Counted from the stretch's first letter, positions 2,973 to 64,000 are shown. The stretch is 64,000 nucleotides of DNA from ANME-2 cluster archaeon (GCA_014237145.1 JAAXOC010000110.1:25639-89638), one strand, 5' to 3'. Program-made: numbers and translations. The notes: a model not told the origin generated them from the sequence alone.

Positions 2973-4130
2973 TTAATTCTCTCTTTTATCTGCTATGAAA
3001 TCCTCTGTGTACTGGTATGCCACATCATCAGTATATTGTTCCGGAGGATGCTTCATGAAAAAGGATGAAGGAGATAAAAGTGCACCACCAATGCCCCTTT
3101 CGAGCGCCAGCTTGCAGCACCTGATGGCATCAATGGATACTCCTGCCGAATTAGGGGAGTCCTCAACAGACAACCGCAGTTCCAGGTCCATGGGAACATC
3201 GCCGAAAAGCCTGCCCTCCATCCTGATAAAACAAACCTTGTTATCCTTCTGCCAGGGAACATAATCACTTGGCCCGATATGGATGTTGTCAGGATCAAGT
3301 CTTTCACCAAGTACTGATTGGACTGCTTCTGTTTTTGATGTCTTCTTAGAAGCAAGCCTGTTCCTGTTGAGCATATTAAGAAAGTCAGTATTGCCGCCTG
3401 TATTCAACTGGTAGGTTCTATCCAGTTTAACTCCCCTCTTTTCGAACAGGTCCACCAGTGTCCTGTGTGTGATAGTGGCACCGATCTGGGCCTTTATGTC
3501 ATCCCCGATTATTGGGATACCCTTTTCCTCAAACTTTGCCGCCCACACAGGGTCACTGGCAATAAAGACAGGAATATTATTAATAAAACCCACACCTGCT
3601 TCCAGGGCACATTCAGCATAGAATTTTGAAGCATCTTCTGAGCCAACCGGGCAGTAGTTCAGGAGCATCTCAGCACCGGATTCCTGTAATATCCTTACTA
3701 CGTCTTCTTTTGATGGTTCTTTCTCATCGGACAGTATGAATGTACGATCTTCGTCATAATCCGCCATATGGGAAGAATAGCCGTCAAGTGCCTTTCCCAT
3801 ACTTACCCTGATACCTGTTTTTGGGATTTCACTGCAAAATGTTGTTGTACAGTTCGGCAATGTAAAAATGGCTTTGGAAACATCCACACCCACTTTACGC
3901 TTGTCAATATCAAAAGCAGCAACTACTTCGATATTATAAGGCTTATAACCGCTGATATCCCAGTGCATCAATCCATTTGAATCATTGCTGTCCCTGTTTT
4001 TATAGTACTCAAGGCCCTGGATCAATGAACTTGCACAATTACCGATCCCTACAATCCCGATTTTAATATTTCCCATCCGTAGTTTCCACCATTTTTTACT
4101 TTGTTCAAAGGGGAGATACATCCAGCCCAA
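2973..4130 (-). CDS. myo-inositol-1-phosphate synthase
   Basis: 385 aa; N-terminal Rossmann motif GIVGIGNCASSLIQG and overall archaeal MIPS-like sequence. Confidence 0.85.
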   Translation of the reverse strand: MGWMYLPFEQSKKWWKLRMGNIKIGIVGIGNCASSLIQGLEYYKNRDSNDSNGLMHWDISGYKPYNIEVVAAFDIDKRKVGVDVSKAIFTLPNCTTTFCSEIPKTGIRVSMGKALDGYSSHMADYDEDRTFILSDEKEPSKEDVVRILQESGAEMLLNYCPVGSEDASKFYAECALEAGVGFINNIPVFIASDPVWAAKFEEKGIPIIGDDIKAQIGATITHRTLVDLFEKRGVKLDRTYQLNTGGNTDFLNMLNRNRLASKKTSKTEAVQSVLGERLDPDNIHIGPSDYVPWQKDNKVCFIRMEGRLFGDVPMDLELRLSVEDSPNSAGVSIDAIRCCKLALERGIGGALLSPSSFFMKHPPEQYTDDVAYQYTEDFIADKREN

Positions 4131-4390
4131 TAGAATTTCAAACTTTTATTAATAATTCATATGTACATAAAGTTTACCTGATATGGTTATTTAAGCACAA
4201 AGAGATAAAACAATTGCCCCTGTATTATATTAATTGATTGTATGCCATTATCTGCCCTTAAGATTAAATTTGCGGTTTTCTGCTGTATCTAATCTATAAG
4301 ATTATGACTCCAAGCAAATGTGACCGAAGGGAGCATTTTCTTGCTGTAATCGTGTAGTTCAGAATGTTTTCGACTGTAATAATGTATGAT

Positions 4391-6301
4391 TTACATATCA
4401 TTATCCATGACCTTACCGCTCATGTTATATGTCCTCATACCTGCAGGCAAACTGTCACAAAATTCGTCACTTTGCAGTACTTCAAGGAATATCTTGCCCA
4501 TCTCACTTTCAATGAACTTTTCCTGTACGACAAAATCATATTCCTCATCAGCAATATAGATGAATTTCAACCCGTTCAATTCAGCCGCCGACCTGATCCC
4601 TACACCCACATCAGCTCTTCCCAAACGAACGGACGCCGCAACTGCACTGTGTGTTCTGGCCTCTGTATCATATCCTTCGATTGCAGCACACAGTTCATCA
4701 AATCCTGTTTTTCTCTTTTTGGCCACTTCCTTTAGTTTCATATCCGTAAACACCCTTGTGCCCGAACCCCGCGTACGGTTTATCATCCTTCTGCCCACAA
4801 TGTCTTCAAATCCCACAATGTCACTGCCAGGTTCTACAATAAGTCCCTGGTCCCGCAGGTAACCTTTGACAAGCACGGCATTATCCAGTCCAAAGGTCTT
4901 GAAGAACGAGAGGTTGTACTTCCCTGTTTCGTCCATCAGATGCACTCCGCCCATGTCAGCGATCCCATCCCTTACCGCTATCATTCCTCCTGTACTGCCG
5001 GTATTTATCATTCTCACACTAAAGGGCAAAAGGCGCATCAGTGCCTCAAAACCCAGGCAATGGCTGCCTATGAAAAGCACGTCAGGGGATTTTACATCCC
5101 CCATCAGGGTAACTACCACTTCATCACCTGCATCAAGCATCTCTACCCTGGGGTCTATCTCAATGAAACCATCTGCATCTGCCAGTGTTGTTATGGCACC
5201 GGACCCCTTATCTACCGGATATGCCTGGCCTCTTACAAGACCCACTGTTAGTAACTGCCGCCGCCCTGGTGAATGATAATCCACTGCCATTTGTGCCCTT
5301 ACCGTGGACCTTGAGCTGGATAATCCCAGGGTATGCCTGATAAGAGGTGCAGTGAATTCATTGAAAATTGTGAGTGCGGATGTTGGATAACCTGGCAGCC
5401 CGAAGACTGGTGTGTCATCCACTATGCCAACTATTACTGGTTTTCCTGGCTTGATATCGATACCATGGATAAGTTCCTTGCCACGCTCACCTATGATACG
5501 GTACATCATATCACCTGCACCAGCCGAAGTGCTGCCCGATGTTATTACGAGCTGGCATTCATCCACGGCACGGCCCAGTATCTCTTCCATATAGGGACGG
5601 TTGTCCCTGACAATACCATAGTACTTGACCTCTGCACCACATTCCCTGGCTGCTGCACCAATAGAATATGAATTGATATCATAGACCATACCCGACCCCA
5701 GTTTGCTGCCTGGCGGGACAAGTTCCGACCCTGTTGATATTATTCCTACGACCAGATTCCTGGCCTTAATGTGCTGCACTCCTACTGCAGACAGCACACC
5801 GATCTCCCTTGGTGTCAACCTGGTACCTGCCTGCAGCACTCTTTCTCCCACCATGATATCCGAGCCCGCATGGATAACATTCTCATTAACAGAGACCGGA
5901 CGCATAATATGGACGCTGCTGCCTTCAGTCCTGGTGTATTCTACCATCACTACCGCATCGGCACCGACAGGCATCATGGCACCGGTTGATATCTCCACTG
6001 CCGTACCTTTGCTTACCTTAACATCAGGAACAGAGCCTGTATCAACACTGCCTGCAAGTTTTAGTGTTACCGGCTTGTCCTCTCTTGCCAGATATGTATC
6101 TTTTGCACGTACGGCATATCCATCCATAGAGGCACGGTCAAAACCCGGGACATCCACCTCTGCAGTAATATCCTCAGCCAGCACTCTACCCAGGGCTTCT
6201 TTCAATCCCAGTTCCAATATCCCGGGCTCAAGGTGTATCTGGCTGATAACCTGCCTGGCATGCTGTGATGATATCAGTTCCCTGAACTCTTTTCTTTCCA
6301 T
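4391..6301 (-). CDS. moeA: molybdopterin molybdenumtransferase MoeA with C-terminal periplasmic-binding-protein-like domain
   Basis: 636 aa; MoeA N-domain and MPT-binding core (ITSGSTSAGAGD region) followed by ~200 aa PBP-like extension typical of archaeal MoeA paralogs. Confidence 0.75.
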   Translation of the reverse strand: MERKEFRELISSQHARQVISQIHLEPGILELGLKEALGRVLAEDITAEVDVPGFDRASMDGYAVRAKDTYLAREDKPVTLKLAGSVDTGSVPDVKVSKGTAVEISTGAMMPVGADAVVMVEYTRTEGSSVHIMRPVSVNENVIHAGSDIMVGERVLQAGTRLTPREIGVLSAVGVQHIKARNLVVGIISTGSELVPPGSKLGSGMVYDINSYSIGAAARECGAEVKYYGIVRDNRPYMEEILGRAVDECQLVITSGSTSAGAGDMMYRIIGERGKELIHGIDIKPGKPVIVGIVDDTPVFGLPGYPTSALTIFNEFTAPLIRHTLGLSSSRSTVRAQMAVDYHSPGRRQLLTVGLVRGQAYPVDKGSGAITTLADADGFIEIDPRVEMLDAGDEVVVTLMGDVKSPDVLFIGSHCLGFEALMRLLPFSVRMINTGSTGGMIAVRDGIADMGGVHLMDETGKYNLSFFKTFGLDNAVLVKGYLRDQGLIVEPGSDIVGFEDIVGRRMINRTRGSGTRVFTDMKLKEVAKKRKTGFDELCAAIEGYDTEARTHSAVAASVRLGRADVGVGIRSAAELNGLKFIYIADEEYDFVVQEKFIESEMGKIFLEVLQSDEFCDSLPAGMRTYNMSGKVMDNDM

Positions 6302-6495
6302 CTTAAAACCTGAAGTAGTTACAGCATTAGAAAAGATAAGTTTGGTGATTTGATCGGATGATGATTTATTCCCACAAAATAACTAACGGTTACGTTTAGA
6401 TCCGGCAATACCCTTGAATACCCGTAAAACTCAAAGCTATCCGGAAATACAGGAAATTGTCCGGAATGAACATGTTCCGGTAAAGTTACAGCAGA

Positions 6496-6708
6496 TCAAC
6501 AAGAATTATGACTAATGGCGCTTGCCGGACATGAGTCCACGCACAGGCAGCATTCAGTGCATTCTTCGATATTGGGCGCTGTGGCTTTGTCGTCAACCAG
6601 TTCAAATACTTCTACCGGACATACGTCCACACATTCGCCAGCACCTACACATTTGTCATTATCTATCTCGAGCGTAATACCATTAGCTTCATACTTTTTT
6701 ACTACCAT
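6496..6708 (-). CDS. 2x[4Fe-4S] ferredoxin
   Basis: 70 aa with two CxxCxxCxxxCP motifs (CVGAGECVDVCP, CTECCLCVDSCP). Confidence 0.8.
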   Translation of the reverse strand: MVVKKYEANGITLEIDNDKCVGAGECVDVCPVEVFELVDDKATAPNIEECTECCLCVDSCPASAISHNSC

Positions 6709-6881
6709 TCTTAACCTCCTGTTAATGTACTGATAAATCCCATCTGAGGGATCTTATCCTATTAAAACAATATTCAACTACTTCTTAATATGTTTTTCTT
6801 GCTGATGAATTTGTGGATGCAATGATAGTGTTTTGATGCAACTTGCCAGATATAGTGATGGTGTCCCCACAACTCCTATTG

Positions 6882-7874
6882 TTACTTCTGTTTTCTAAGA
6901 GCCCTCATTGTTTCCTTGTGAAGAGAAGCGATAAGATCACCCATCATAGCAAAGATGAACATCTGTATCCCGCCTATTATGATAAGTGTGGTCAACATCG
7001 CCAGCAAAACATGTGTGACCCCGGCCATCCACTCGTTCACAACGTATATACCGATGACCAATCCGATAAGAATGGTCACTCCTCCCATCACACTGAAATA
7101 AAATAAAGGATTATTCATTTTTGCCATTTTGAATATCGTCCTCCCTATCCTGAACCCGTCGGTTATAGGATTTAACTTAGTGGCTGCCCCTCCGGGCCTG
7201 GCAAGGTAAGTAATGGGTACCACTTTGATATCAACCTCTTGCCTGACACATTCAACAGTGATCTCGGTCTCTATCTCAAACCCGGTCTGGTTCAGTACCA
7301 TATTTGAGATTGTCTCCCTTGTGAAACCCCTGTATCCGGATAATATATCACTGAGCCATTCCCCATAAGCGAATCCAAAGAGCTTGTTAAGGATCCTGTT
7401 CCCTATCTTGTTCAATCTGGTGAAGGCATCTTTACCCGGGTTTGCAAACCTGTTACCTATAACATGTCCGGCCCCTTCTGCAAGTGCATCCATGATGAGG
7501 TTAACTTCACCAGGCAGGTATGTACCATCACCGTCTATCATGATCAGATACGGGCTGTCGATAATGTCAAAGGCCTGCATAACAGCCTGTCCTTTTCCCT
7601 TACCGGTCTGCATTACGACATTGGCACCCTTCTCCCTGGCAATATCTGCCGTACCATCCTTGCTGTGGCCGTCCAGTACCAGGATATTGGAAAATCCCAT
7701 TGACATGAATTCGTCGACCAGATCACCTATGGTATGGGATTCATTCATTGTGGGGATGAAGATGCAAACCTCATCTGGTTGGATGCTCTGTACCTCATCC
7801 GGCTGAATACTCTTCATATCTGTCGTTCGCTTCATTATATTCCAACTACCCGCCACTACATCAATATTCATCAA
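6882..7874 (-). CDS. family 2 glycosyltransferase (dolichyl/polyprenyl-phosphate sugar transferase-like) with C-terminal TM helices
   Basis: 330 aa; GT2 fold signature (IPTMNESHTI...DGDGT) and two C-terminal hydrophobic helices. Confidence 0.8.
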   Translation of the reverse strand: MMNIDVVAGSWNIMKRTTDMKSIQPDEVQSIQPDEVCIFIPTMNESHTIGDLVDEFMSMGFSNILVLDGHSKDGTADIAREKGANVVMQTGKGKGQAVMQAFDIIDSPYLIMIDGDGTYLPGEVNLIMDALAEGAGHVIGNRFANPGKDAFTRLNKIGNRILNKLFGFAYGEWLSDILSGYRGFTRETISNMVLNQTGFEIETEITVECVRQEVDIKVVPITYLARPGGAATKLNPITDGFRIGRTIFKMAKMNNPLFYFSVMGGVTILIGLVIGIYVVNEWMAGVTHVLLAMLTTLIIIGGIQMFIFAMMGDLIASLHKETMRALRKQK

Positions 7875-7886
7875 TATTAAATGTAT

Positions 7887-8807
7887 TCAATCTTTTAATA
7901 ATAATACCGCGGCTGCTATCACCAATAGCACGTAAACGGCCCCCATGAATGGCATTTCAGTGGGAACAGGGATTGTGGACTCGTTCTCTCCCGGCTCTTC
8001 TGACAGGTTGTTTTGCGGTGGCGGAACTATATCTATAATGTAAGTTATTTCTGCTCCCTCTGCATCGGCACCTTCATTGTCAGTTGCACTTACATTGTCA
8101 GTCATACCCTCATCAGTTGCACTTACATTGTCAGTCGCACCTTCAACAGTTGCACTTACATTGTCAGTCGCACCTTCAACAGTTGCACTTACATTGTTAG
8201 TCGCATCAATACTCTCATTTATTGCACCGAACCTACCAGAAAGATCAGATGTCCTGATGCTCACATTATCAATACCCTTGGTCGATATGATCTGCATACC
8301 TTCAGGGAAACTAACTGACAGCAGCGACCCGGGTTCTCCAAGGAACCATATGGTACTGCCATTTTCCAGCAGTCCTCCCGAAAATGAGTATGTTACCCTG
8401 TAGGTGTTTGTCAATTCTGTCATGCTCTTGACGGGGCCCAGTGCATTTTTAGAAAGTGAAGCATCGATATCCAGTACCTCAATACCAAGTGAAGAATTGT
8501 CTATCCTGACATCCGTTTCACGTTCAATAGCATCCCTGAAACGTTCCCTCATCCGCTTGTCTGCCTTCATCAGTTCCGATGTACTGACAAAATCGTCCTT
8601 GTTCCCCTGCTTGTTATCGATATCGTATTTGAATACAAAGGAATCCATATCAGACAGCTCTTCTGTGTACTGCCATTCCATGCCGTCCAAATGAATAATG
8701 ACCTGGTTGCTCCAGTTATATTCGGCGCTGGCACTTCCGGTAACCAGGGCTGCAAATATTGTTATTCCAAATAGTCCTGCAATTATTCTAAGACGTACCA
8801 TGATCAC
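7887..8807 (-). CDS. secreted cell-surface protein with 11-aa tandem repeats and C-terminal TM anchor
   Basis: 306 aa; signal peptide, four copies of TDNVSATVEGA encoded by 33-bp DNA repeats at ~8079-8215, C-terminal hydrophobic helix followed by LLKD. Confidence 0.55.
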   Translation of the reverse strand: MIMVRLRIIAGLFGITIFAALVTGSASAEYNWSNQVIIHLDGMEWQYTEELSDMDSFVFKYDIDNKQGNKDDFVSTSELMKADKRMRERFRDAIERETDVRIDNSSLGIEVLDIDASLSKNALGPVKSMTELTNTYRVTYSFSGGLLENGSTIWFLGEPGSLLSVSFPEGMQIISTKGIDNVSIRTSDLSGRFGAINESIDATNNVSATVEGATDNVSATVEGATDNVSATDEGMTDNVSATDNEGADAEGAEITYIIDIVPPPQNNLSEEPGENESTIPVPTEMPFMGAVYVLLVIAAAVLLLKD

Positions 8808-9712
8808 CTGGTTATTACCGTACAGCCGTCCTCTTCGACCATTAAGGTATGTTCTGCCTGGGAGACCAGTTTCCCAGTTTCCTCTTTCAGTACCGGATAA
8901 GAGGAAATGTTCCCGTTCTTTTCAAGCTGCAGCATTGCAAAGTCCAGGTGCTTTGAATTGAGCCACCGCTTTGCAAAGGGCAGTGTCCTGAATGGTTCGA
9001 TCTCTTTTAAGATGGCCCTGGCAGCGGGAGCCCGGATGGGCTTGTTGCCAACCTTATTATATATCTCAGTACCTGCCCCCTCACTCACATATCCCCTGCC
9101 GTCGGTGGCAAAAGGTTCTATGGCCACCACCTGCCCCACTTCAAGGATAACACCGGAATCAACAGGGATATTGGGTATAGTAGGCGGCACATGCTGCATA
9201 TACTGGGCCAGACCGTGCCCTGTCAGGTTAGCCACGGGTTTATACCCAAAACCTGTAATGGTATCATTGATGATCACTCCCAGTTCTGCTGTGTTAATTC
9301 CTGCATGTACGGCCTGGATGGCAGCTTCAAGGGCTGCTTCGGCTGCATCAACCAGTTCAGGGTGCCCTGATAAGTCCACAGTGATGGCTGTATCGGCAAT
9401 GTATCCATCGATATGCACACCGATATCCAGTTTGACCATATCCTCGCCGAACACATCAGTATCTTCCTTTGTGGGTGTGGCATGGGCAGCCTCCTCGTTG
9501 CAGGATATGTTTATTGGAAATGCCGGCTCACCCCCTTCTTTACGGATCATGTTCTCGCCGAAGTTTGCCACATCAAGCAGGGACGCACCCACCTGAACCT
9601 GTTTTGCGGTCTCTTTCCTGACACGGGCAAGTATCTTACCGGCAGTTGTGTATTTCGTGACTATTTCATTGATTTCCTTGACCAACTCGTTTTCGTCCAT
9701 TACTAACATCAC
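8804..9712 (-). CDS. map: methionine aminopeptidase, type 2 (archaeal)
   Basis: 302 aa M24A peptidase with conserved metal-ligand residues; typical archaeal MetAP2 length. Confidence 0.9.
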   Translation of the reverse strand: MMLVMDENELVKEINEIVTKYTTAGKILARVRKETAKQVQVGASLLDVANFGENMIRKEGGEPAFPINISCNEEAAHATPTKEDTDVFGEDMVKLDIGVHIDGYIADTAITVDLSGHPELVDAAEAALEAAIQAVHAGINTAELGVIINDTITGFGYKPVANLTGHGLAQYMQHVPPTIPNIPVDSGVILEVGQVVAIEPFATDGRGYVSEGAGTEIYNKVGNKPIRAPAARAILKEIEPFRTLPFAKRWLNSKHLDFAMLQLEKNGNISSYPVLKEETGKLVSQAEHTLMVEEDGCTVITR

Positions 9713-9722
9713 CTGTGATTAT

Positions 9723-10865
9723 TCATAACTGTAGATTCTTATCAAATATAGTTAAATTCTTGCATCCGACATCAGTGACCACTACCATATCCTCCACACG
9801 TACGCCACCCACGTCCTTATAATACAGTCCGGGTTCCACTGTCACCACATTCCCCACCTCCAGTTCAACATCCTGCAAACCCAGGCCCGGTTTTTCATGT
9901 ACTTCAAGCCCCACGCCGTGACCCGTAGAATGGATAAAACCTTCATCATCCCCAACCTTAAAACCGGCATCGTCCAGTGTATCGCATACCGCCTGGTGCA
10001 CATCACTGCCATTTACCCCGGGTCTGATAAGCCCAAATGCGGTCTCCTGTGCTTCCACTACTGCGCTATGCATTTCTACGATCCTGGGATCCGGCTCACC
10101 AATGACAACGGTCCTGCTCATGTCGCAGTAATACCGGCTCACCATATGACGGGGGAACACGTCCAGTACGATAGGCTGGTGGGCCTTCAGTACTCCGCTT
10201 CCCTGCCAGTGGGGGTCAGCAGAACCGGGTCCGCAGGCCACAATAGTGTCATCAGCCTCGCAGCTGTGATCCAGCAAAGAGTGGTGTATGACTGCCCTGA
10301 CTGCTTCGGCAGTGAGGGGGGTGCCATTATGGATCAATTCATCATCACTGACCTGTGCCCTGCTAATAAATTCAATGGCCAGTGCCACAGCTTGTTCGCA
10401 TATGCGCTGGACCGCCGTGATGGCCCGGATCTCTGATCCGGTCTTATTTTCCCTCAACCTTGCAATAGGGCTCTTGACACTTGTGATCTTGAAACCCTCA
10501 GCCTTCAGGCATTCACCAAAGAACAGTGGAAAGTCCCTGGGCACTGCAATGGTGCTGCACCCTTCTTTTTCCAGCAGCCTGGCCAGCACTTTGCAGTATA
10601 CTACGCCGCTGTCATTGTGCCACTTCAATTCATCCATGAGTCCGTAATCGGACGAAGACCTGACATCGTTTATCCCGGATTCCTTCTCAGCCCGGCCTTT
10701 TTCCATACTTGATACCAGCAGGATATCCCCTCCGGCATGCAGGTATGTGAAAGCGTCAGGTGCCAGGAACCTGGTGGCATAGTATATATCCGGGCTGCGG
10801 TGGCTGTCGGCATGCAGCAGGTAGGCATCAAAACCGTTCTGCTGTAAAAAATTTTTAAGTTCCAT
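9723..10865 (-). CDS. M24B family Xaa-Pro aminopeptidase/dipeptidase
   Basis: 380 aa with creatinase-like N-domain and pita-bread C-domain (HSTGHGVGLEVHE). Confidence 0.8.
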   Translation of the reverse strand: MELKNFLQQNGFDAYLLHADSHRSPDIYYATRFLAPDAFTYLHAGGDILLVSSMEKGRAEKESGINDVRSSSDYGLMDELKWHNDSGVVYCKVLARLLEKEGCSTIAVPRDFPLFFGECLKAEGFKITSVKSPIARLRENKTGSEIRAITAVQRICEQAVALAIEFISRAQVSDDELIHNGTPLTAEAVRAVIHHSLLDHSCEADDTIVACGPGSADPHWQGSGVLKAHQPIVLDVFPRHMVSRYYCDMSRTVVIGEPDPRIVEMHSAVVEAQETAFGLIRPGVNGSDVHQAVCDTLDDAGFKVGDDEGFIHSTGHGVGLEVHEKPGLGLQDVELEVGNVVTVEPGLYYKDVGGVRVEDMVVVTDVGCKNLTIFDKNLQL

Positions 10866-27857: not shown

Positions 27858-28094
27858 TCACCCCATTATCCCCATTCCCTGAACTATCCACCAAATCATT
27901 CCCTGACCCTTATCGAAATGCCACTTTGCGACAAGCCCGGCATTCCCCTGCACCGACACCATAGCCCCGCAGTGTGGACACTTACTCACCTTTGCACCTG
28001 CCCCTACCCCTGCCGAAACCGGCTTAGCCGCATCCATCAACTTAGCATCCAGCTCCTGCCTGCGGTAGGCATCCTTGCGCTCCCTATCCTTCAT
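27858..28094 (-). pseudogene. orphan duplicated 3' fragment of the SPFH-zinc-ribbon gene (zinc-ribbon tail cassette), frameshifted
   Basis: DNA 27900-28094 aligns at about 90% identity by eye with 31350-31560 (3' end of 31347..32654); translation MKDRERKDAYRRQELDAKLMDAAKPVSAGVGAGAKVSKCPHCGAMVSVQ then diverges by frameshift. Confidence 0.65.
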
Positions 28095-31346: not shown

Positions 31347-32654
31347 TCAATCCATCTTCCCCCCACACTCCCCACAGAACTTCGCCTGCACCGGCACCAT
31401 AGCCCCGCAGTGTGGACACTTCCTCAACTTCGCACCAGAACTTGCACCTACCCCTGCCGATACCGGCTTGGCCGCATCCATCAATTTAGCATCCAGTTCC
31501 TGCCTTCGGTAAGCATCCTTGCGCTCCCTGTCCTCAACCCCCTTCATAAACTCAACCTTTTCATCTTTCGCTTTTGCCTCGCTTTCCCTAACCTTAGCCA
31601 GCGCCTCGATCTGCTCCGCCGAAAGATTACTCAACTCACGCCCTTCACTAATAGTCTTCGCAACATCGGCACCGTCCGCCTCAGTAACAGTCTTCATATA
31701 CTCCATATCCCGGCCGTGCTCTCTATCCTTCATATCCTGCTCAACCTCAAGCTCGGCACGCATACCCCTGGCCTTTGAAAGGTGCATCTCCTCCTTTAGC
31801 TTCAATGCCTCACGGGCCGCCTTGATATCTGCCTCGTCCTCTCGCTGCTCTCTTTCAATCTGTGCCCGAACATCTTTAAGCTCCTGCTCCCGCCTGAAAT
31901 CCTTTTCAACTGATATGGGAGCATGTCTGGCCCGTACTCCAGCCACATCCACCCTGCCTTCCCTTTCCAGTCCCCCCTCCTTCGAGATAGTATCAAGTTC
32001 AGCCAGTTCTTCCCCTGTCTGGAACTCCTGGTGAGCTTCAAGTATAGTCTTGTATTCGCCAAGGTCCCACTCTGCCGTATGTTTCAACAGTTCCAGGCCC
32101 CACATATCCAGTGTCTGTTCAAGCTGGGATTCCAGTTCATTCTCGATTGTGATCTGCAAGTCCCGGTTGCCGTATATATCTTCCATAGGCATACGGCTGA
32201 TCTCAGGTTCAAGTACCCGTGTCAATACCTCGCTCTGCAGGCGTGCGTATATATCCCGGACTCCAAGGGCACGTTCACCTTTCTTATCAGTAGTTGAATA
32301 AGCATATACCATTGAAAAGAACCGTTTTATATCCCCTATCTTGAAACGAATTAACCCGCTGCAACCAAGTTTCTGTTTATCTGCTGTCCAGAGTTCACCC
32401 ATGTTCCAGTTAAGGTCTTTGGGCGAAGTGTCCATTATGACTACATCCACGTCCTTTAAAAAATTCCCGGGTTTCAGCAATCCGCCGACACGGATCTTCC
32501 CGCTGTCCAGTACATCTGTTACCTCGCCGTTCTTGACTATCACAGCTTTTTCATTAGGCTGGATGATCAGGTCCTTTTTAAGGATACCACCCACCTGGTT
32601 TTTCGGTATATTCCTGGCAATATCACTTACATCTCGCAACCATTTCCGGGCCAT
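31347..32654 (-). CDS. SPFH/band-7 (flotillin-like) domain protein with long coiled coil and C-terminal zinc ribbon
   Basis: 435 aa; N-terminal SPFH-like segment (NEKAVIVKNGEVTDVLDSGKIRV...DVDVVIMDTSPKDLNWN...LIRFKIGDIKRFF), E/R/K-rich coiled coil, tail KCPHCGAMVPVQAKFCGECGGKMD; no TM helix. Confidence 0.6.
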   Translation of the reverse strand: MARKWLRDVSDIARNIPKNQVGGILKKDLIIQPNEKAVIVKNGEVTDVLDSGKIRVGGLLKPGNFLKDVDVVIMDTSPKDLNWNMGELWTADKQKLGCSGLIRFKIGDIKRFFSMVYAYSTTDKKGERALGVRDIYARLQSEVLTRVLEPEISRMPMEDIYGNRDLQITIENELESQLEQTLDMWGLELLKHTAEWDLGEYKTILEAHQEFQTGEELAELDTISKEGGLEREGRVDVAGVRARHAPISVEKDFRREQELKDVRAQIEREQREDEADIKAAREALKLKEEMHLSKARGMRAELEVEQDMKDREHGRDMEYMKTVTEADGADVAKTISEGRELSNLSAEQIEALAKVRESEAKAKDEKVEFMKGVEDRERKDAYRRQELDAKLMDAAKPVSAGVGASSGAKLRKCPHCGAMVPVQAKFCGECGGKMD

Positions 32655-48011: not shown

Positions 48012-48034
48012 ATTGTATCCAGTAATAATAATGA

Positions 48035-49303
48035 TCAGACCTTAAAATCTTTTTTGGCAATCCTATTGTCAGTCTCGTTAGCAATCCCGTTGCCAGTCCC
48101 GTTGCCAGTCCCGTTGTCAGTCCCGTTGTCAGTCCCGTTAGCAGTCCCGTTAGCAGTCCCGTTAGCAGTCCCGTTAGCAATCCCGTCAGTAGTTTCGTTA
48201 GCAGTTCCGCTGGCAATCCCGTTAATAATTGCATCATAGCGCTGGCATACACGCTTAACAATATCATCTGCGGCATTCTGGTGTGAGGGCACCAGTATAT
48301 CCGCACCTGATGATACGTCTACTCCCTCACTCGATAATCCATAATCAGGGGCTATCAGCAGCCCGCCGGAAGATACATTGAGCTTCATATCGGTGATGAG
48401 CCGGGCCACCATATCAGTAGCAGGCTTCACCCTGGTAGTAATGCCAGGGGTCTTGGATAAATATTGTTCCTTTAATTCGCTTACCTTTTCAACTGCTGCT
48501 TTTACCTTGTCCTTATTACCAAGAAGTGAGAGTTTTTCTATAGTCTCAAGCAGGTCATCGAAAGTAACAGCCTGCACCTCTATAATCTCTCCATTAAAGT
48601 ATTCGGCAACCTTCTCCCCGTACCCCTTTGAGATTACCAGCTTGCCCACGTCTTTTATTCGCAGGATCTCTTTGTCTGTGGGTTTATACGGCTCCACAAC
48701 CTTGAAATTATCAATACCCAGCAAGAACATTAGGGACAAATATCCCATTGTAACACCTACGGTGGGCTTCACACCCAGCCACTTGTCAAGCCCGGTCTGC
48801 CCTTGCTCGGATACCAGCTCGATAATCTTCTGCTTAATATACTCAGGATCACTGGATCTTAGCCCGAAATATTCGGCAAATCCCTGTGTGGTCGTAAGTA
48901 TCCGGCTTCTCCCCTCCGGGCTCCTGCTTATCAGTCCCCTGGCCTCCAGTTCCTTTACATGGTCATAGGTGGCATTGCCGCGTTTCTCTACCAGGTCGCT
49001 CTGGAGCAGTGGCTGGTGGTAGGCTATCATGGAAAGAGTCCTGAGTACAGGGGATGGCAGTTCCTTCGGAGCCACACTCCTTACCTGGTCTGCACATTCA
49101 GGTTTGACCTGCATAACGTACTTGCCTTCCACCTCAATGATATCCAGTCCTGATTGCCGCTCTTTGTATTCCTGTATGAGTGAGAGTACAATAGCACGGG
49201 TTTTTTTCTTTTTACTTACCAGTTCCTTTAATGTGGCAAGATCTACCGGTCCGCCGGCAGCGAATAATGCAGCCTCAATTATCTCACGGTCCCCTATGAA
49301 CAT
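48035..49303 (-). CDS. scpB: segregation and condensation protein B homolog with long C-terminal extension and (GTAN)n repeat tail
   Basis: 422 aa; N-terminal ScpB-like tandem wHTH (IEAALFAAGGPVDLATLKELV); C-terminal GTANGTANGTANGTDNGTDNGTGNGTGNG encoded by 12-nt DNA tandem repeats at ~48063-48230. Confidence 0.7.
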   Translation of the reverse strand: MFIGDREIIEAALFAAGGPVDLATLKELVSKKKKTRAIVLSLIQEYKERQSGLDIIEVEGKYVMQVKPECADQVRSVAPKELPSPVLRTLSMIAYHQPLLQSDLVEKRGNATYDHVKELEARGLISRSPEGRSRILTTTQGFAEYFGLRSSDPEYIKQKIIELVSEQGQTGLDKWLGVKPTVGVTMGYLSLMFLLGIDNFKVVEPYKPTDKEILRIKDVGKLVISKGYGEKVAEYFNGEIIEVQAVTFDDLLETIEKLSLLGNKDKVKAAVEKVSELKEQYLSKTPGITTRVKPATDMVARLITDMKLNVSSGGLLIAPDYGLSSEGVDVSSGADILVPSHQNAADDIVKRVCQRYDAIINGIASGTANETTDGIANGTANGTANGTANGTDNGTDNGTGNGTGNGIANETDNRIAKKDFKV

Positions 49304-55636: not shown

Positions 55637-57494
55637 ATCCCCTTACGGCTTTGGCGCCGTTGACCATTCCTTCATCTACACCTTCCACGATAAGGTCTGG
55701 GAGTGAGGTGGCCTCTTCATCTGATACGAAAGGCATGTTGTACCTGATGTTCATGCTGCTTCCAGGTTTTACGTCAAGTCTCCAGATATGATCGCTATCA
55801 TTACCCAGTGATATGACCTTTGGTTCAGGATCTGCATCCCTTACCGGATACTTGTGTGTATCGTGCAGTTTAAATGCCATTGAAGCGCTGCTGTAGTTCT
55901 TTACAGTGATATTCACCTGCACCCCGTCCCCGTTGTGTGAGATACTGCGATACACCAGCAGGTTGCCCATGACCTTTGCCACTACCGGGGTAATATCAGG
56001 GGTTGGCCTGTCTAGTATTGTGGATACCTTGTCAGCTATTCTGGGCAGTATTTTCTTTATGATCTCTTCTTTTTCCCTGCGCTTGGACAGATGCTGCTGT
56101 TTTGACAGGAAGGTCTTGAGCTTGCGGGCCACGTCCTTTAGTGCCAGTTCGACCTCGTTCATGATCTCTGGGACGTCTGCCACAGCATCCTTGCTCTCTG
56201 AAGTGAATGGTATATGAGTGGAGGCGACATGCACTACGAACACGGCAGGACCTGTGGGAAGACCGCCGCCGGGCTGGTTCAGGGAGTAGTTCTTCCACCT
56301 GATGTTCTCGACTGCATGGGTGATGGCACAGCCGCCCTGCTGGTAGAGCAGAGGCACCCGGTTGGCAAATCTTAATATGTGTACCCTGTCCTCTTTCCCA
56401 AGGCTGCCGCCATAGGAAATGCCTGCCTCTACCAGGAAGGGATGGCCTGTGTGCACCGACGCTGACCGGCTGACAGTAGCTATAAAATCCACGCTGAACT
56501 CTTTTTCAAGCCCCTTGTAGATGAGTGACTCGGTGATGGGGGACAGACAGTCAGTGGGTGGTGCCATGATCTTGACTTTCGTAAAGGCATCCAGGAGTTT
56601 TTTTGCATCTTCCAGTTCAATGGACCGGGGATCGGTTTCAGGGTCAAGATGGGCAGCTTTGCATATTTCCTCTGCGGTCAGGAGGCCGATCCGGGAAAAG
56701 CTGTATCTTAAAAATGGGGCGAGTTTCTGCCTGTCGGTGTAGCGCAGCATCTTGATAAGCGTGCCCAGTTCGATTCCCTCTGGGTGGGGCAGGATCTCCT
56801 TTGCCGGTTCGGGCAGGGTGTCCACTGCACGCTCGAATATGATCGTATTGCCGTCCGGTTCCACCAGGGTAAGCCTGGCATGGGTGTTGACGATGGCTGT
56901 ACTTTTTAAATATTCCAGCACGCTCTGCCGTCGTCCCTTGACGTATGAAGCTTTCATCTCCATCTCAACACGGGTGCCTCTGGGTCTGTCCCAGTCCACA
57001 ACTTTATCCTCAAGTATCTCTGGCTCGTTGGTGCTGGTATTTATGACAAGTTCATAATAATGGGCAGGTTTGTCCCGGTCTATCTTGGATATGATGCGTG
57101 TGGGCTTACCTGTGGTGAGCTGGCTGTACAGGACTGCGGCTGATATGCCTATACCCTGCTGTCCCCTGCTCTGCTTGATGGCATGGAAGCGGGAGCCGTA
57201 CAGGAGCTTGGCAAATGTACTGGGTATTTGCTCCTTGACTATGCCAGGACCATTGTCCTCTATTATAATTGCAACATTATCGCCGCCAGCATCTTCTATG
57301 CTGACCATGATGTCAGGCAGTATCCCTGCTTCTTCGCATGCGTCAAGGGAATTGTCCACACCTTCCTTGACTGCGGTTAGCAGGCTGCGGGGTGCGGAAT
57401 CAAAACCCAGTATCTGCCTGTTCTTTTCAAAAAATTCTGCGATACTTATGGCACGTTGTTTTTTTGCAAGCTCTTCAGCTATTGGTACTGCCAC
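55623..57494 (-). CDS. top6B: DNA topoisomerase VI subunit B
   Basis: 623 aa; GHKL (Bergerat) ATPase motifs, H2TH and transducer domains. Confidence 0.9.
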
Positions 57495-58130: not shown

Positions 58131-58370
58131 TTGGAAGAAAAAAATACAATCATGGTTACAACAATCCAAATAAAAGAAGATACCAAATCGACATTAACGC
58201 AAATGAAACTCTTTGAAAGAGAGACTTATAACGATGTTTTAGAGCGACTCATTGAGGACGTTCACGAACTCAATGATGAAACAAAAAAAGAGATTGAATC
58301 CGCAATAAATGAGATCAAGAGCGGCAAATACATTACACATGAAAAGCTTGCTGAAGAAATGGGATTCTGA
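58131..58370 (+). CDS. antitoxin of RelE/ParE-type TA pair
   Basis: 79 aa; stop overlaps start of toxin gene (58370). Confidence 0.5.
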   Translation: MEEKNTIMVTTIQIKEDTKSTLTQMKLFERETYNDVLERLIEDVHELNDETKKEIESAINEIKSGKYITHEKLAEEMGF

Positions 58371-58627
58371 TGATATTTCAAATAATATGGTCAGAATCAG
58401 CAGCAAAGAAACTTAAAAAATTAGATAAAACCGTTGCAAAACGAATTTTCAAAAAAGTTTCAGAACTTAGCGAAAATCCATATCATTCTGACGTAACAAA
58501 AATGGTAGGAGATCCTTATTTTCGACTACGCATTGGTGATTATCGTTTCATTTTTAATATACAGAATGACATGCTTCGAATGCTTATTCTTAATGTAGGT
58601 CATCGAAAGAATGTCTATATAAAATAA
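58370..58627 (+). CDS. RelE/ParE family toxin
   Basis: 85 aa; YFRLRIGDYRFIFNIQNDMLRMLILNVGHRKNVY is a classical RelE/ParE C-terminal pattern. Confidence 0.75.
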   Translation: MIFQIIWSESAAKKLKKLDKTVAKRIFKKVSELSENPYHSDVTKMVGDPYFRLRIGDYRFIFNIQNDMLRMLILNVGHRKNVYIK

Positions 58628-58739
58628 TTGAACCGTCACTTTTGTAAAAATGCGCACATGAATTTGGACTGCACAATTTAAATCTCCAATTCGTCTCCTT
58701 TTCCGTTGGATTTTGAATTACTGGACCGCCTCTTTGAGC

Positions 58740-58797
58740 TGAAGAACATCCGGTGGTCCGTATTTTGTGTATACAATCGCTTTCACTGGGGTATCCT
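58740..58797 (-). pseudogene. stub of a third copy of the zinc-type alcohol dehydrogenase-like gene (first ~19 codons only)
   Basis: ctctttgagctgaagaacatccggtggtccgtattttgtgtatacaatcgctttca matches 5' ends of the genes at 60811 and 62643. Confidence 0.55.
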
Positions 58798-58817
58798 TCC
58801 TTTTTGATTAATAATAA

Positions 58818-59804
58818 TTATAATCGCGCGAGTACATTAATCAGTTTATCGCAGCCACCGTTTTTTATAAATTCCGTATGATCGTCTATTGTCTTAAAAC
58901 ACTGTCCACATATTTTATGACATAGAATTTCAGAATCGGTCGCACCATAGAATGCTTTTAATGTGTTTGTCGCGTTTGGATTAAGATTTGCGGATTTCTC
59001 AGGATGTTTTCTACACCAAGCGAGAGTGTTCATCCATATCGTAGCACTCAGCGCGCCACAAGCATTACCGCTCAAACCAAGACCTCCGGCAAATCCGGCA
59101 ACCATAACCATTTCTTCATCACTAGCTCCCATTTTTTTGGCGACTTCAGAAGCGCAACTTATAGGCAGTTGAGGTAGATCAGTTTGTTCGTTGGATAATC
59201 CTTCAGTTGCTGATTGGATCGCTTCCGGAGTCCTTTTTCCGAGACCGTTACAATTTGTGTTGGTGAATCTAATTAAACCACAGATAAACACAGATGAACA
59301 CAGATTTTCAGGCAGCGTATCCGCGTTCATCTGCGGTTAGTTTGATAATACTAACATTTAATGTAACGGTCTCATTTTTCCGCAAGTTTAAAGCAGGATA
59401 TAAATCTACCAGATAAAAAGTATTTCACCAGACTAAATTTGCTTGAAAAATCACAACCAGTTATGTCCGAACAGTTGACGCTTTTTGCCCTATTTGAAAA
59501 TGATTCCATAAGGTGCCACGTTGCCGTTATGGCAATACCGATGGCTTGACCGCGGTCATTGCTCCTACGAAAGGATTCCGCTCCTACAGCCAATGCAGAC
59601 CCCCCAAAGCATTCCGCATTGATATCCTTCTTTCATTAATCCACCCGCTAATGGGTCCGCAGCACGCTCCTCAGTTTCTAGTGGATAACCGAATTCGCGG
59701 TTTAATATATAAAAGAATGTGCGAGAGCAAGTACCTAATTTTCGAAATACTTTTTTGGTGTCTTGTTGAGCGGTCTTTTTGTTTGAATTCATTTTTTTCA
59801 CCAT
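58818..59804 (-). pseudogene. C_GCAxxG_C_C family gene disrupted by MITE insertion and frameshifts
   Basis: Three consecutive ORFs in different frames (59565..59804, 59372..59593, 58818..59330) together align to the intact C_GCAxxG_C_C region of 60868..62643; N-terminus of the 58818..59330 ORF is read from the inserted element. Confidence 0.75.
59241..59373. mobile_element. 133-bp MITE, copy 2, inserted into C_GCAxxG_C_C gene; 12-bp TIRs gagaccgttaca/tgtaacggtctc; 8-bp TSD tttttccg
   Basis: Comparison with the intact paralog (61290-61330) shows a clean insertion flanked by direct tttttccg (59233-59240 and 59375-59382); core aaccacagataaacacagatgaacacag...gcgttcatctgcggtt. Confidence 0.8.
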
Positions 59805-60811
59805 TTCTTTTTATTATGTTCCAAAGTTATGACTACATTTCCCTTTTTGTGTCCTTTTTCGACATACCTGTGAGCCTCAGCAGTCTGTTCCAGCGGATAG
59901 CATCGATCTATGACCGATATTATCTTCCCCGCCTCAACAAGCTCTTTGAGGAAAATTAGATCTTCAGACTTTTCGCTTGCCAACGCACATATTACTTTCT
60001 TGCTGCCTATAATCGAAGTCCCTAACATTTGAATAAGTTTTCTCATCTTAAAGCTGGCTAAAAGATAACGTCCGTTCTGCGTTAGCGAGCCTTTACAACG
60101 TGAGAATGAACTCCTGCCTAATATGTCAAAAATTAGATTATATTTCTCACCGTTCTTGGTAAAATCCTCCTTGGTATAATCGATTACTTTATCAGCTCCC
60201 AGAGATTTCACCAATTCTAATCTCGGGGTACTGCATACCCCGGTAACTTCTGCTCCATAATACTTGGCAAGCTGCACTGCGAGTGACCCTATCCCTCCGG
60301 AAGCTCCATTGATAAGGACCTTTTGTCCGCTCTGAATATTTACTTTTCTAAGGAGGCTTAACGCCATTATTCCCCCGTAAGGAACGCAAGCGGCTTCCTC
60401 ATAGGTCATATTGGCCGGTTTGATCCCCACCATCCCATCTTCAGGCATACATAGATACTCGGCATTGGCACCCATGCTCATACCACGATATGCAAAAACT
60501 TGGTCTCCTCTCCGAAATTTTTTTACACCTTTGCCTATCGCTTCAATTTCCCCGGCTAACTCGCTCCCCAGTATAGGGTTTTTTGGTTTTCTGAGACCAA
60601 ATGACATTCGTGCGGGGAGCCAGAGGAGCATAGGCATATTGAACTCGCTGGGAGAGATATTGCTAAAATTTCGAGCTGTAATATCCCCGTAATTTACTGG
60701 CGTCGCATATACACTTATCAGTATTTCATTATCCTTGGGAGTAGGTTTTTCTACCTCTTTGAGCTGAAGAACATCGGGTGATCCGTATTTTGTATATACA
60801 ATCGCTTTCAT
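59798..60811 (-). CDS. zinc-type alcohol dehydrogenase-like / quinone oxidoreductase (MDR superfamily)
   Basis: 337 aa; [24 protein letters not shown]-terminus, NAD(P)-binding [15 protein letters not shown]. Confidence 0.8.
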
Positions 60812-60867
60812 AAGTACTCCTCCTAATTTATTTTATTATTTCAGTAACCTGATCAGAGAACAATAGT

Positions 60868-62643
60868 CTATTGAAGAGAATTCGTGTCCGCGAGTACATT
60901 AATCAGTTTATTGCAGCCACTGTTTTTTATAAATTCAATATGATCGTCTATTGTCTTAAAACACTGTCCACATATTTTATGACATAGAATTTCAGAATCG
61001 GTCACTTCATAGAATGCTTTTAATGTATTTGTCGCGTTTGGATTAGGATTTGAAGATTTTCCAGGATGTTTTCTACACCAGTCAAGTGTGTCTATCCATA
61101 TAGCGGCGCTCAGTGCGCCACAAGCATTGCCGCTCAAACCAAGACCTCCAGCAAATCCGGCAACCATAACCATTTCTTCATCACTAACTCCCATTTTTTT
61201 AGCGACTTCAGAAGCGCAACTTATTGGCAGTTGAGTTAAATCCGTTTGTTCGTAGGATAATCCTTCAGTTGCTGATTGGATCGCTTCCGGAGCCCATTTT
61301 TCCGCGAGTTTAAGGCAGGATATGACTTTACCAAAGAGAAAGTATTTCGCCATACTGATTTTGCTTGAAAAATCACAACCAGTTATATCCCTACAATTGA
61401 CGCTTTTAGCCCTTTTTGAAAATGATTCCATAAGGTGCCCCGTTGCCGTTATGGCTATACCGATGGCTTGATCGTGATTATCGTGCCTACGAAAGGATTC
61501 CGCCCCCACAGCCAATGCAGATCCCCAAAGCATTCCGCATTGATATCCTTGTTGCAATATTCCACCACATAATGGATCCGCGGCACGCTCCTCAGTTTCT
61601 TTTAGATAACCGAATTCACGGTTTAATATATAAAAGAATGCGCTAGAGCAAGGGCCTTTTTTTAGAAATACTTTTTTGGTGTCTCTTTTAATCACTTTCG
61701 TAATGATTTCTTCAATTCGTTGGATTTTATTATTATGTTTCAAAGTTATGACTACATTTCCCTTTTTGTGTCCTTTTTCAACATACCTGTGAGCCTCGGC
61801 AATTCGTTCCAAAGGATAGCGTCTATCTATGACCGGTTTTATCTTTCCCGCCTCAATAAGCTCTTTGAGGAAAATTAAATCTTCGGCACTTTCCTTATAT
61901 GTCACCTTATGAATTGACACGAATGTCCCGTTCGGAATTAGTGCTTTCTTGCACTTTGATTTCGAGAGTTTTCCAACGGCATCAAAGATGCAACCATAAA
62001 GCTCTCCGCTTTGGGTAAAATCCTCTTTGGTGTAATCAATTACGTTATCGGCTCCCAGAGATTTCACGAACTCTAAATTGGTGGTACTGCATACCCCGGT
62101 AATTTCTGCCCCAAAGTGCTTGGCAAGCTGCACCGCAAAAGTACCTACACTCCCAGAAGCTCCATAGATTAAAACTTTTTGTCCGCTCTGGATATTTCCT
62201 TTTCTAAGAACCTGCAATGCCCCAATTCCCCCGGTAGGAACGGCGGCAGCTTCCTCATAGGTCATGTTGGCCGGTTTTATTGCCACCACCCCTTCTTCAG
62301 GCAGACATTTGTATTCGGCATGAGCGCCAAAATCCAAACCGCAAGATGCAAAAACTTGGTCACCTTTCTTGAACAGCTTTACATCTTTACCTACTGCTTC
62401 AATTTCCCCGGCTAGCTGCATCCCTAGTATAGCTCTCTTTGGTTTTCTAAGACCTAAATATATTCGCGCGGGGAGCCATTCCCAGAAAGGGACTGTGAAA
62501 CTTCGCATTCTCACGTCCCCTGCTGAAACGGTTGTCGCGTGTACTTTTACCAGTATTTCATTGTCCTTGGGAGTAGGTTTTTCCACCTCTTTGAGCTGAA
62601 GAACATCCGGTGGTCCGTATTTTGTGCATACAATAGCTTTCAT
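60868..62643 (-). CDS. fusion ORF: MDR-superfamily oxidoreductase (N-terminal ~330 aa) + C_GCAxxG_C_C family domain (C-terminal ~250 aa)
   Basis: 591 aa continuous frame; N-half ~75% identical by eye to 59798..60811 product; C-half contains intact [22 protein letters not shown] motif; no stop between halves, unlike the paralogous pair. Confidence 0.65.
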
Positions 62644-63099: not shown

Positions 63100-63420
63100 T
63101 TGGGGATTGGCTACACTGTTTGCCTTTACCCTTCCCGCATCCCCTCCCGATCAGCTCCGACCGCCCATGTTGTGAGGGGGCTGGCAGGCGCTTGGTGCTT
63201 TTCTCACTTAGTACCCTTAATGGTCAACCAGATCCCAAGACCAAGCTGTCAGAGTCCCACCGGACTTGCCAATATCACGAAAATGGGATACAATGTCACT
63301 TCAATACAGGGCAGCCAGAGCCCAACTGTAATCAGGATACCTGGGATTTCAAAATGGAGCTGGTGGAGGGATTTGACAGGGGGCGCAGTGAGAGGGGGAC
63401 CGTTAAAAAGTGCCTGTCGT
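63100..63420. other. ~320-bp GC-rich non-coding segment, candidate structured ncRNA
   Basis: Abrupt GC rise; only two overlapping + strand ORFs with low-complexity products; runs of GGGGG and several hairpins (gggcagccagagccc). Confidence 0.35.
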
Positions 63421-63427
63421 TATCTTA

Positions 63428-64000
63428 TCATTGCCCTTTTGTCATTTCATCTGCAATCAGTTCTGCCTGTTTAAGCACTGTTTCTGTCGCAAGTGCCTGC
63501 ATATCAGGAGGGTAACCATATTGTCTCAATGTCCGTTTTACAATTACTCTTAATTTTGCCCTGACGTTTTCTTTTATTGTCCAGTCTATTGACGCATTCT
63601 GTTTGACTTTCTCAAATAGAACAACTGCTAATTCCCGAAGTGTATCTTTTTGCATCAATTCCCTGGCACTTTCATTATCAGCTATTGCTGTATAGAAAGC
63701 ATATTCATATTCTGATAAACCCATTTCTTTTGGTTCTTTATCTATTCTTTTAATTTCTTTGCTGAGTTCAATTAATTCTTCAATTACTTCTGCTGCAGTT
63801 ATCACCTTATTGTGATATCTCTTGATTGAATCCTCAAGCATTTCCATCAATGTTCTACCTTCCACCAGATTCTTTTTGACCCTTGCTTTTATCTCATCAT
63901 TGAGTAACTTCTTTAAAACTTCAAGAGCGATATTTTTGTGTTCCATACCCTGGACTTCTAAAAGAAAATCTTCCGAAAGTATAGATATATCTGGTTTTTT
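63428..64000 (-). CDS. hsdR: type I restriction enzyme R subunit (HsdR), C-terminal part; gene continues beyond window end
   Basis: Frame is open through 64000 (KKPDISILSEDFLLEVQGMEHKNIALEVLKKLLNDEIKARVKK...); LSEYEYAFYTAIADNESARELM...NVRAKLRVIVKRTLRQYGYPPD matches the HsdR C-terminal domain. Confidence 0.65.
   Translation of the reverse strand, partial: KKPDISILSEDFLLEVQGMEHKNIALEVLKKLLNDEIKARVKKNLVEGRTLMEMLEDSIKRYHNKVITAAEVIEELIELSKEIKRIDKEPKEMGLSEYEYAFYTAIADNESARELMQKDTLRELAVVLFEKVKQNASIDWTIKENVRAKLRVIVKRTLRQYGYPPDMQALATETVLKQAELIADEMTKGQ

Follow-up and report, generated by a model that had tools for sequence, protein, structure and literature searches.

The array and its three units

We analysed a 64,000-nt stretch of DNA (one strand; hereafter the window) from the metagenome-assembled genome (MAG) of an ANME-2 (anaerobic methanotrophic) cluster archaeon (GCA_014237145.1 JAAXOC010000110.1:25639-89638). 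On the minus strand, it carries three units built from two kinds of coding sequence, one for a medium-chain dehydrogenase/reductase (MDR) and one for a tandem double C_GCAxxG_C_C protein or domain (CG): a fused copy A, a broken copy B and a stub, C (Table 1).

Copy A is a single open reading frame (ORF) of 591 codons. An earlier note on this DNA had read it as one MDR::C_GCAxxG_C_C fusion, and both the ORF list and Pfam agree: ADH_N, ADH_zinc_N and ADH_zinc_N_2 are followed by two C_GCAxxG_C_C stretches, the first ~306 residues matching the MDR domains and the last ~275 residues matching C_GCAxxG_C_C twice. Copy B consists, as also described there, of an intact oxidoreductase gene followed by a broken C_GCAxxG_C_C gene, which we find in three pieces. 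The stub is indeed a remnant of an MDR 5′ end. It is larger than the 58 bp first given to it: it begins with a GTG start codon at 58795–58797, preceded by a ribosome-binding-site region, and the matching sequence ends at 58726 (~72 nt). It belongs to a repeat family (D10) that is 95% identical to copy A and 92% identical to copy B, and we take it to be what is left of the MDR of a third unit.

Origin of the fusion in copy A

The linkers of copies A and B differ, as the earlier note had stated: in copy B, the MDR ends with NKKKW-TGA and its stop codon overlaps the new Met with which CG-B starts (ATGGTGA), whereas copy A reads through. Whether a fusion had been created in A or a stop gained in B was to be judged from the loci of relatives, and this comparison gives an answer. 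Among the fetched comparison loci (denoted by L-numbers), the stand-alone MDRs of L092 and L091 are very similar to the MDR half of copy A (93% amino acid identity; nucleotide identity 94.7% for L092 and 94.6% for L091). The linker of the metagenome contig L092, which includes a TAA stop (AAA ACC TAA CAA ATT GGA GGA ATC CTT ATG AAA GTG ATT AAA AGA), and that of copy A (AAA ATC CAA CGA ATT GAA GAA ATC ATT ACG AAA GTG ATT AAA AGA) are collinear without any indel. The stop codon of L092 corresponds to CAA in copy A (61720–61722, codon 308), the ribosome-binding site GGAGGA to GAAGAA (61708–61713) and the ATG start of CG to ACG (61699–61701). Copy A thus has a collinear split homologue, in the same frame, with a stop at one of its sense codons; the same relationship links L090 and L094 to a second fusion, L096 (see below). 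Relative to the split state, the linker of copy A carries six substitutions, five of them besides the stop change. Decay of the ribosome-binding site and of the ATG is expected once the downstream half is translated only within the fusion.

Homologues of the two halves occur separately. The best 120 matches to the fusion are all stand-alone MDRs save two unrelated longer proteins, with no other fusion among them, and the best 120 matches to the CG half likewise all stand alone, with lengths of 264–328 aa. An exhaustive phmmer search of 1.84 billion cluster representatives gave no match spanning both halves among the best 150. The 90% identity cluster that contains the fusion has 27 members; among the 15 listed, the other 14 are MDRs of 305–320 aa from Methanosarcinales. 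As both halves have stand-alone homologues, and as stop, ribosome-binding site and ATG are all preserved in L092, the split state is ancestral and the fusion derived, through a TAA-to-CAA change.

It could be argued that an error of assembly or sequencing hides a true stop between the genes, since the source is metagenome-assembled and data or methods are probably common to the sister assemblies. We consider this extremely unlikely. The change is a substitution and not a homopolymer indel, and MDR and CG are already in the same frame in split relatives, so that an indel or frameshift error, the cause that the earlier note wished to exclude, cannot produce the fusion. Five more linker substitutions accompany the stop change, and L096 has the same change in a different background. 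In addition, the protein is present, identical, under four NCBI accessions, all named 'zinc-binding dehydrogenase [ANME-2 cluster archaeon]', and in the three contigs examined (JAAXOD010000024, JAAXOG010000075 and JAAXOE010000062). A genuine stop-loss fusion is therefore retained in what follows.

The whole array, too, has been assembled repeatedly, being found in at least three sister MAGs (JAAXOD, JAAXOE and JAAXOG contigs), and MDR-B has an exact counterpart in NCBI under the name 'NAD(P)-dependent alcohol dehydrogenase [ANME-2 cluster archaeon]'. Over 11 kb, contig JAAXOD010000024 (L081) and the window share 99.83% identity; the 19 differences leave copy A and the G run of CG-B untouched, and five of them fall inside the element inserted in CG-B. 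The same array is present in JAAXOE010000062. In JAAXOG, the locus is spread over two contigs. One of them, L173, starts within MDR-B and runs through the broken CG-B; on the other, L082 (JAAXOG010000075, 4.9 kb), an MDR-B of 336 aa with an altered 3′ end joins the stub directly, without CG-B (L082 4587–4876 aligned to window 58521–59808), and the flank on the toxin side is only 95.8% identical to the window. This suggests that L082 is a deletion or recombinant haplotype co-existing with L173 in the same MAG, or it may be an assembly chimera. Duplication during assembly, which would have undone the earlier reading, does not account for copies A and B, as they are far from identical (75% nucleotide identity for MDR and 88.5% for CG).

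Table 1 Features of the MDR/CG array and its boundary (window coordinates)
Feature	Position	Strand	Evidence
Copy A, MDR::CG fusion, 591-aa single ORF	60868..62643	-	ORF list, Pfam
MDR-A domain, aa 1–306, 'short' subtype	61726..62643	-	Alignment with homologues
Fusion linker, former stop codon, intergenic spacer and CG start	61690..61725	-	Codon-by-codon comparison with L092, L090, L094, L006
CG-A, double C_GCAxxG_C_C domain, aa 318–591	60868..61692	-	Pfam, TIGR01909
MDR-B, intact, 337 aa, 'long' subtype	59798..60811	-	ORF list, Pfam, alignment
CG-B, inactivated double C_GCAxxG_C_C gene, three ORF pieces	58818..59804	-	ORF list, A/B alignment, Pfam
G6 run with the +1 frameshift of CG-B	59600..59605	-	A versus B alignment
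Inserted element (59241–59373) with flanking 7-nt repeats	59234..59381	.	A/B alignment, inverted-repeat search
Stub C, MDR 5′ end with ribosome-binding-site region, ~72 nt	58726..58797	-	Repeat family D10, alignment
ParE toxin and DUF7557 antitoxin-like pair, array boundary (context)	58131..58627	+	Pfam labels of called genes

Inactivation of the CG gene in copy B

The three ORF pieces of CG-B lie at 59565..59804, 59372..59593 and 58818..59330. Alignment with copy A reveals two lesions, one extra G in the run at 59600–59605 and 140 extra nucleotides, the latter made up of a 133-bp element (59241–59373) and a 7-nt direct repeat, GGAAAAA. Together the two lesions add 141 nt, which brings the third piece back into the frame of the first: CG-B is in three pieces, as previously described, but in two frames and not three. 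The near-identical contig L081 has the same G run as the window.

The inserted element is non-coding and bounded by perfect 12-bp terminal inverted repeats, GAGACCGTTACA. GGAAAAA direct repeats flank it at 59375–59381 and 59234–59240, offset by one T on one side, and alignment shows that it is missing from the equivalent site in copy A and in relatives. It is thus small and non-coding, with terminal inverted repeats and a target-site duplication, all of which are features of a miniature inverted-repeat transposable element (MITE), the name it had been given in the earlier note. That it is an inverted-repeat element stands. As to repetition, no extra copy was found in the 64-kb window, whether by allowing up to three mismatches or by the terminal inverted repeat, and none was found in the 171 fetched loci beyond copies of this same locus. 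The five single-nucleotide differences from the 99.8%-identical assembly that cluster within its 133 bp hint at a repeat.

Once the additional G and the 140 nt are taken out, CG-B reads as an open 279-aa ORF in which the eight conserved Cys are all present. The dN/dS (ratio of non-synonymous to synonymous substitution rates) of this repaired ORF is 0.34–0.44, which is not above the values between intact relatives; the inactivation of CG-B is therefore recent. In NCBI, the third piece (58818–59330, minus strand) carries the annotation of an intact 'C_GCAxxG_C_C family protein' of 170 aa. The inserted element supplies the start codon and the first ~32 residues of this piece, and one full four-Cys repeat is included. 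As it is of canonical single-domain size, it could still be expressed as a single-domain member of the family.

Identity of the MDR and CG proteins

ADH_N, ADH_zinc_N and ADH_zinc_N_2 score above their gathering cut-offs in copies A and B, which places both enzymes in the MDR superfamily. The NAD(P)-binding GxxGxxG motif is GASGSVG at residue 161 in copy A and GASGGIG at residue 169 in copy B, and is invariant in the alignment. The catalytic zinc ligands are absent. At the positions that we take, from established knowledge of the GHE motif, to be those of the ligands, SAGD and LAGEIEAVG stand in place of the Cys and His of zinc-dependent alcohol dehydrogenases (Zn-ADHs), and the structural-zinc Cys loop is lacking as well. 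The description 'Zn-ADH-like' is hence apt as a superfamily label but not as that of a zinc enzyme, the nearest type being the quinone oxidoreductases and PIG3. TIGR02824 (PIG3/quinone oxidoreductase) is the best NCBIfam match, but the scores of 153.4 and 162.1 bits are far below its cut-off of 296.8, and the two MDRs are not members of it. They form a separate, uncharacterised and highly conserved MDR subfamily found across many bacterial phyla.

To our knowledge, C_GCAxxG_C_C is a widespread family to which no function has been assigned, and a literature search on it returned almost nothing. The TIGR01909 family name calls its members 'putative redox-active', and some are selenoproteins (PMC9312934), as the family name also indicates. 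CG-A matches the Pfam family C_GCAxxG_C_C (PF09719) in two stretches with 79.3 bits (cut-off 27) and TIGR01909 with 49.2 bits (cut-off 47.4). The CG protein is a tandem duplication of ~275 aa with four invariant Cys per repeat. In an alignment of 26 sequences (65–88% identity), these are C19, C56, C104 and C130 in the first repeat and C163, C195, C241 and C264 in the second, corresponding to fusion residues 332, 369, 417, 443, 476, 508, 554 and 577. The signature motif is QCGMLWG in repeat 1 and ACGALSA in repeat 2. Hosts of CG include Bacteroidota, Aminicenantes, Neomarinimicrobiota, KSB1, Bathyarchaeota and Methanosarcinales.

An AlphaFold2 model of CG generated from the 26-sequence alignment is all-helical (predicted local distance difference test 73, predicted template modelling score 0.77). 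Searches of the PDB with the single sequence and with the 26-sequence profile returned nothing relevant at E ≤ 10. Two CG homologues of 322–328 aa (P0185 and P0247) have an N-terminal extension with weak matches to twin-arginine translocation signals, below the Pfam cut-off; some CG members may thus be exported in a folded, cofactor-bound form.

A second fusion

A second MDR::CG fusion is found in L096. In this contig, the frame stays open from the contig edge up to position 1807 (at least 601 aa), and all eight Cys are kept in the CG domain. Its MDR is a different paralogue (70% amino acid identity to MDR-A, with a dS of ~1.06), and its linker is longer than that of copy A, being of the 14-codon type seen in the split relatives L090 (stop TAA) and L094 (stop TGA). 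At the stop position, L096 reads CAA, at the very codon that is changed in copy A; here the ATG survives, and the ribosome-binding site has decayed. Because linker type and MDR lineage differ between the two, it is parsimonious to regard copy A and L096 as two separate fusion events, while the two may also be linked by transfer through recombination.

The coincidence of the two changes raises another explanation, namely that an in-frame layout with a single stop is kept for occasional read-through and that CAA alleles make the fusion constitutive. Six split pairs are in frame (L090, L092, L094, L006, L025 and L151, the last with two stops), and the two fusions occur at the very same codon. However, in-frame pairs including the two fusions make up ~8 of 19 adjacent pairs, which is near the chance expectation of one-third, and the pairs that are in frame are close relatives of one another. 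The split forms, moreover, keep a strong ribosome-binding site and an ATG, and no read-through signal was seen, none having been sought. We therefore find a layout maintained for read-through very improbable, and prefer simple loss of the stop codon.

History of the array

The three units had been described as a tandem triplication. Three units in three states are indeed present, but a single recent event does not fit their divergence. MDR-A and MDR-B share 69.5% amino acid identity and have a dS of 0.72 (0.88 in the core), whereas the dS between CG-A and CG-B is 0.24. MDR-A is of a 'short' subtype (~307 aa) and MDR-B of a 'long' one (~330 aa), and the ~20-aa indel that separates them is common to many bacterial homologues; a ~20-aa 'deletion' in MDR-A as a sign of decay was accordingly considered and rejected, since the short form is a natural subtype in many homologues. 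The closest relatives of the parts also differ, and each half is nearer to sequences from other genomes than to its counterpart in the adjacent unit. MDR-B is closest to L104 (83% amino acid identity), then to L110 and L007; CG-A is closest to L090 (93.4% nucleotide identity), and CG-B to L092 and L001 (~91–92%).

One recent in situ triplication of a single MDR+CG unit, followed by divergence, would readily explain the head-to-tail order of the three units, their shared 5′ end (D10, 92–95%) and the likeness of the CG halves (87–91% nucleotide identity). We nevertheless judge it quite improbable, in view of the gap between the MDR and CG dS values, of subtype indels that are common to bacterial homologues, and of affinities in which MDR-A is nearest L092 and L091, MDR-B is nearest L104, and CG-B is nearer L092 and L001 than it is to CG-A. 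The old MDR halves and much more similar CG halves point to recombination or gene conversion between cassettes, and the array is probably a mosaic of old paralogues whose CG parts and gene ends have been homogenized by recombination.

Arrays of a comparable kind occur elsewhere. The close relatives L090 and L094 have an intact MDR–CG–MDR arrangement. In bacteria, divergent MDR paralogues lie beside one double CG, with three MDRs in L007 (2996–6813) and four in L110 (33–4816), and L006 (4951–8870) has the order MDR–CG–MDR–MDR. The syntenic locus L091 has one MDR and no CG, with the same toxin–antitoxin pair after the MDR; there (3727–9746), MDR and toxin–antitoxin pair are flanked by parts of a type I restriction system, an N-terminal HsdR fragment on one side and hsdM on the other. 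A gene for an HsdR C-terminal domain is present in the window as well (63428–63946), directly upstream of the array. Possibly the cassette inserted into a restriction locus or rearranged it; structurally, the region is fluid. P0123, the closest stand-alone MDR and from a Methanosarcinaceae member, has thioredoxin and molybdopterin neighbours and no CG, and was of no help in reconstructing the locus.

Other observations concern the surrounding sequence. A cluster at 63312–63421 accounts for six of the 19 differences from L081, including the sole indel; within this region, a 49-nt stretch (63335–63383) recurs at 96% identity in L091 (5977–6026) in another relative position, and may be another small repeated element. 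At 57123–57223, inside a topoisomerase VI B gene that is otherwise identical, six C/A transversions relative to L081 lie within 100 nt; they may reflect strain variation or an assembly-consensus artefact. Unconnected with the MDR/CG array are a 12-nt tandem repeat array of ~17 units (48030–48235), tandem repeats of 30-nt and 33-nt units (2781–2960 and 8081–8205) and a ~150-nt segment duplicated 3.4 kb apart (27943–28090 and 31381–31534).

Association of MDR and CG genes

That the repeated pairing of the two proteins might point to a functional couple, as the earlier note had suggested, gains support both from the second fusion and from gene neighbourhoods. Neighbours were counted within the fetched flanks of 160 CG-bearing loci, 80 from genomes and 80 from metagenomes. 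An MDR of the same family is the commonest neighbour, being found near CG in 33 of the 160 loci (18 of 80 genomes and 15 of 80 metagenomes), and in ~17 of the 33 it lies directly upstream of CG on the same strand. For a subfamily present at few copies per genome, we infer that an adjacency of ~20% is far above chance. The two fusions and this recurrent adjacency support a working relationship between MDR and CG, and a functional couple is plausible.

A model of cassette turnover

We consider it likely that the locus is a turning-over array of MDR+CG cassettes, in which a fusion arose by stop loss, CG-B died and a stub was left behind. The array would sit in a variable, defence- and toxin-rich part of the ANME-2 genome, each cassette comprising a zinc-independent, quinone-oxidoreductase-like MDR and a ~275-aa double CG protein. 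This type of cassette occurs in many bacterial phyla, which probably reflects horizontal movement. In copy A, a T-to-C change in the MDR stop (TAA to CAA) would have joined the same-frame CG gene into a 591-aa protein, after which the now useless internal ribosome-binding site and ATG would have decayed. In copy B, the CG partner would have been destroyed by the inverted-repeat element and by a +1 slip in the G run, and the gene would have been lost altogether in the co-occurring haplotype. Copy C would be the 5′ leftover of a third MDR.

As to function, the substrate of the MDR half may be a carbonyl, enone or quinone-type compound, reduced with NAD(P)H, and the CG half may provide two four-cysteine centres, metal/Fe–S or thiol-based, as a redox or substrate-handling partner; the fusion would then fix a 1:1 ratio and hold MDR and CG together. 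Copy A keeps the GxxGxxG motif and all eight invariant Cys. From this retention of residues and from the constraint on both halves, the fusion is most likely, as a prediction, a working two-domain enzyme. A further step would be to see CG as a dedicated physical partner of a zinc-free, quinone-reductase-like MDR, the two forming a new two-component NAD(P)H-dependent redox system with Cys centres acting in catalysis or in substrate delivery. We put this forward only tentatively, as a possibility about which doubt prevails. Thiol- or metal-based handling of substrate or product by CG is as possible as electron transfer to an Fe–S centre.

Several points weigh against this picture. MDR-A and L092 differ with a dN of 0.035 and a dS of 0.129 (dN/dS ~0.25), and CG-A has a dN/dS of 0.30 against either L090 or L092, but such pairwise values, while consistent with a functional protein, are not assignable to the period after fusion. 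The 591-aa product is a predicted protein only. Pairing is facultative, ~80% of CG loci having no MDR nearby, and CG has other recurrent neighbours: class I S-adenosylmethionine-dependent methyltransferases (17 and 14 loci), a pyrroloquinoline quinone-type beta-propeller protein (13 loci) and a cysteine desulfurase (Aminotran_5)–rhodanese fusion (11 of 160 loci, for example, L030 6827–8338). MDRs transfer hydride and have no flavin, which would make direct electron transfer to a one-electron Fe–S centre unusual. Finally, the accessions of the sister MAGs are consecutive; a single study is their probable source, and hence they are not fully independent replicates.

An alternative is that the fusion ORF is a neutral accident en route to decay, its product being useless or not made. 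The adjoining units are a pseudogene and a stub, the locus lies amid a toxin–antitoxin pair and type I restriction fragments, and MDR::CG fusions are very rare overall. Yet 591 codons are open, with the eight Cys and the NAD(P) motif intact despite six linker substitutions; dN/dS is ~0.25–0.30 relative to the nearest relatives; and the second, seemingly independent fusion in L096 is fully open. We therefore regard decay as unlikely, and favour turnover of cassettes with a fusion that is predicted to work.

Comparison with known systems

The fusion, which has apparently arisen twice, and the frequent adjacency of the two genes provide a concrete, testable hypothesis on the partner of C_GCAxxG_C_C. 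If the couple is true, the ANME-2 fusion is a ready-made single-polypeptide construct for probing the function of this family. The locus also offers a textbook case of small-scale cassette turnover in an uncultured archaeon, combining stop-loss fusion, death by element and frameshift, deletion haplotypes and recombination between paralogues. It leaves the view of ANME metabolism unchanged.

With MDRs of the quinone-oxidoreductase/zeta-crystallin/PIG3 type, the enzymes described here share the GroES-like and Rossmann domains, the GxxGxxG motif, a length of ~305–337 aa and the absence of catalytic zinc ligands. Copy A differs from that type by its C-terminal extension of 285 aa, and we know of no characterised quinone oxidoreductase with an extension like it. 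As a member of the C_GCAxxG_C_C family (PF09719/TIGR01909; DVU_1555-type), CG scores above the cut-off and has the four-Cys pattern; unlike canonical members, its domain is duplicated in tandem, with eight invariant Cys, and copy A joins it to an MDR. We also compared CG with the split-Soret cytochrome c of Desulfovibrio desulfuricans (PDB 1H21, 'A novel iron centre...') and detected no sequence similarity; CG, whose model is of moderate confidence, lacks the CXXCH haem motif of that protein.

The pair may also be likened, by annotation only, to two Desulfococcus biacutus proteins whose locus tags are four apart and which were both detected among those formed in growth on acetone (PMC4103992): 04510 is of the C_GCAxxG_C_C family, and 04514 is a Zn-dependent dehydrogenase annotated as threonine-dehydrogenase-like. 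Their joint appearance would speak for a couple. Lastly, copy A resembles 'Rosetta-stone' stop-loss fusions of adjacent co-oriented genes, in that a split relative has its stop, ribosome-binding site and start at sense codons of the fusion. Compared with these, the mechanism and the kind of event are ordinary; what stands out is that the same codon has been changed in two cassette backgrounds, and that the MDR::C_GCAxxG_C_C architecture is rare.

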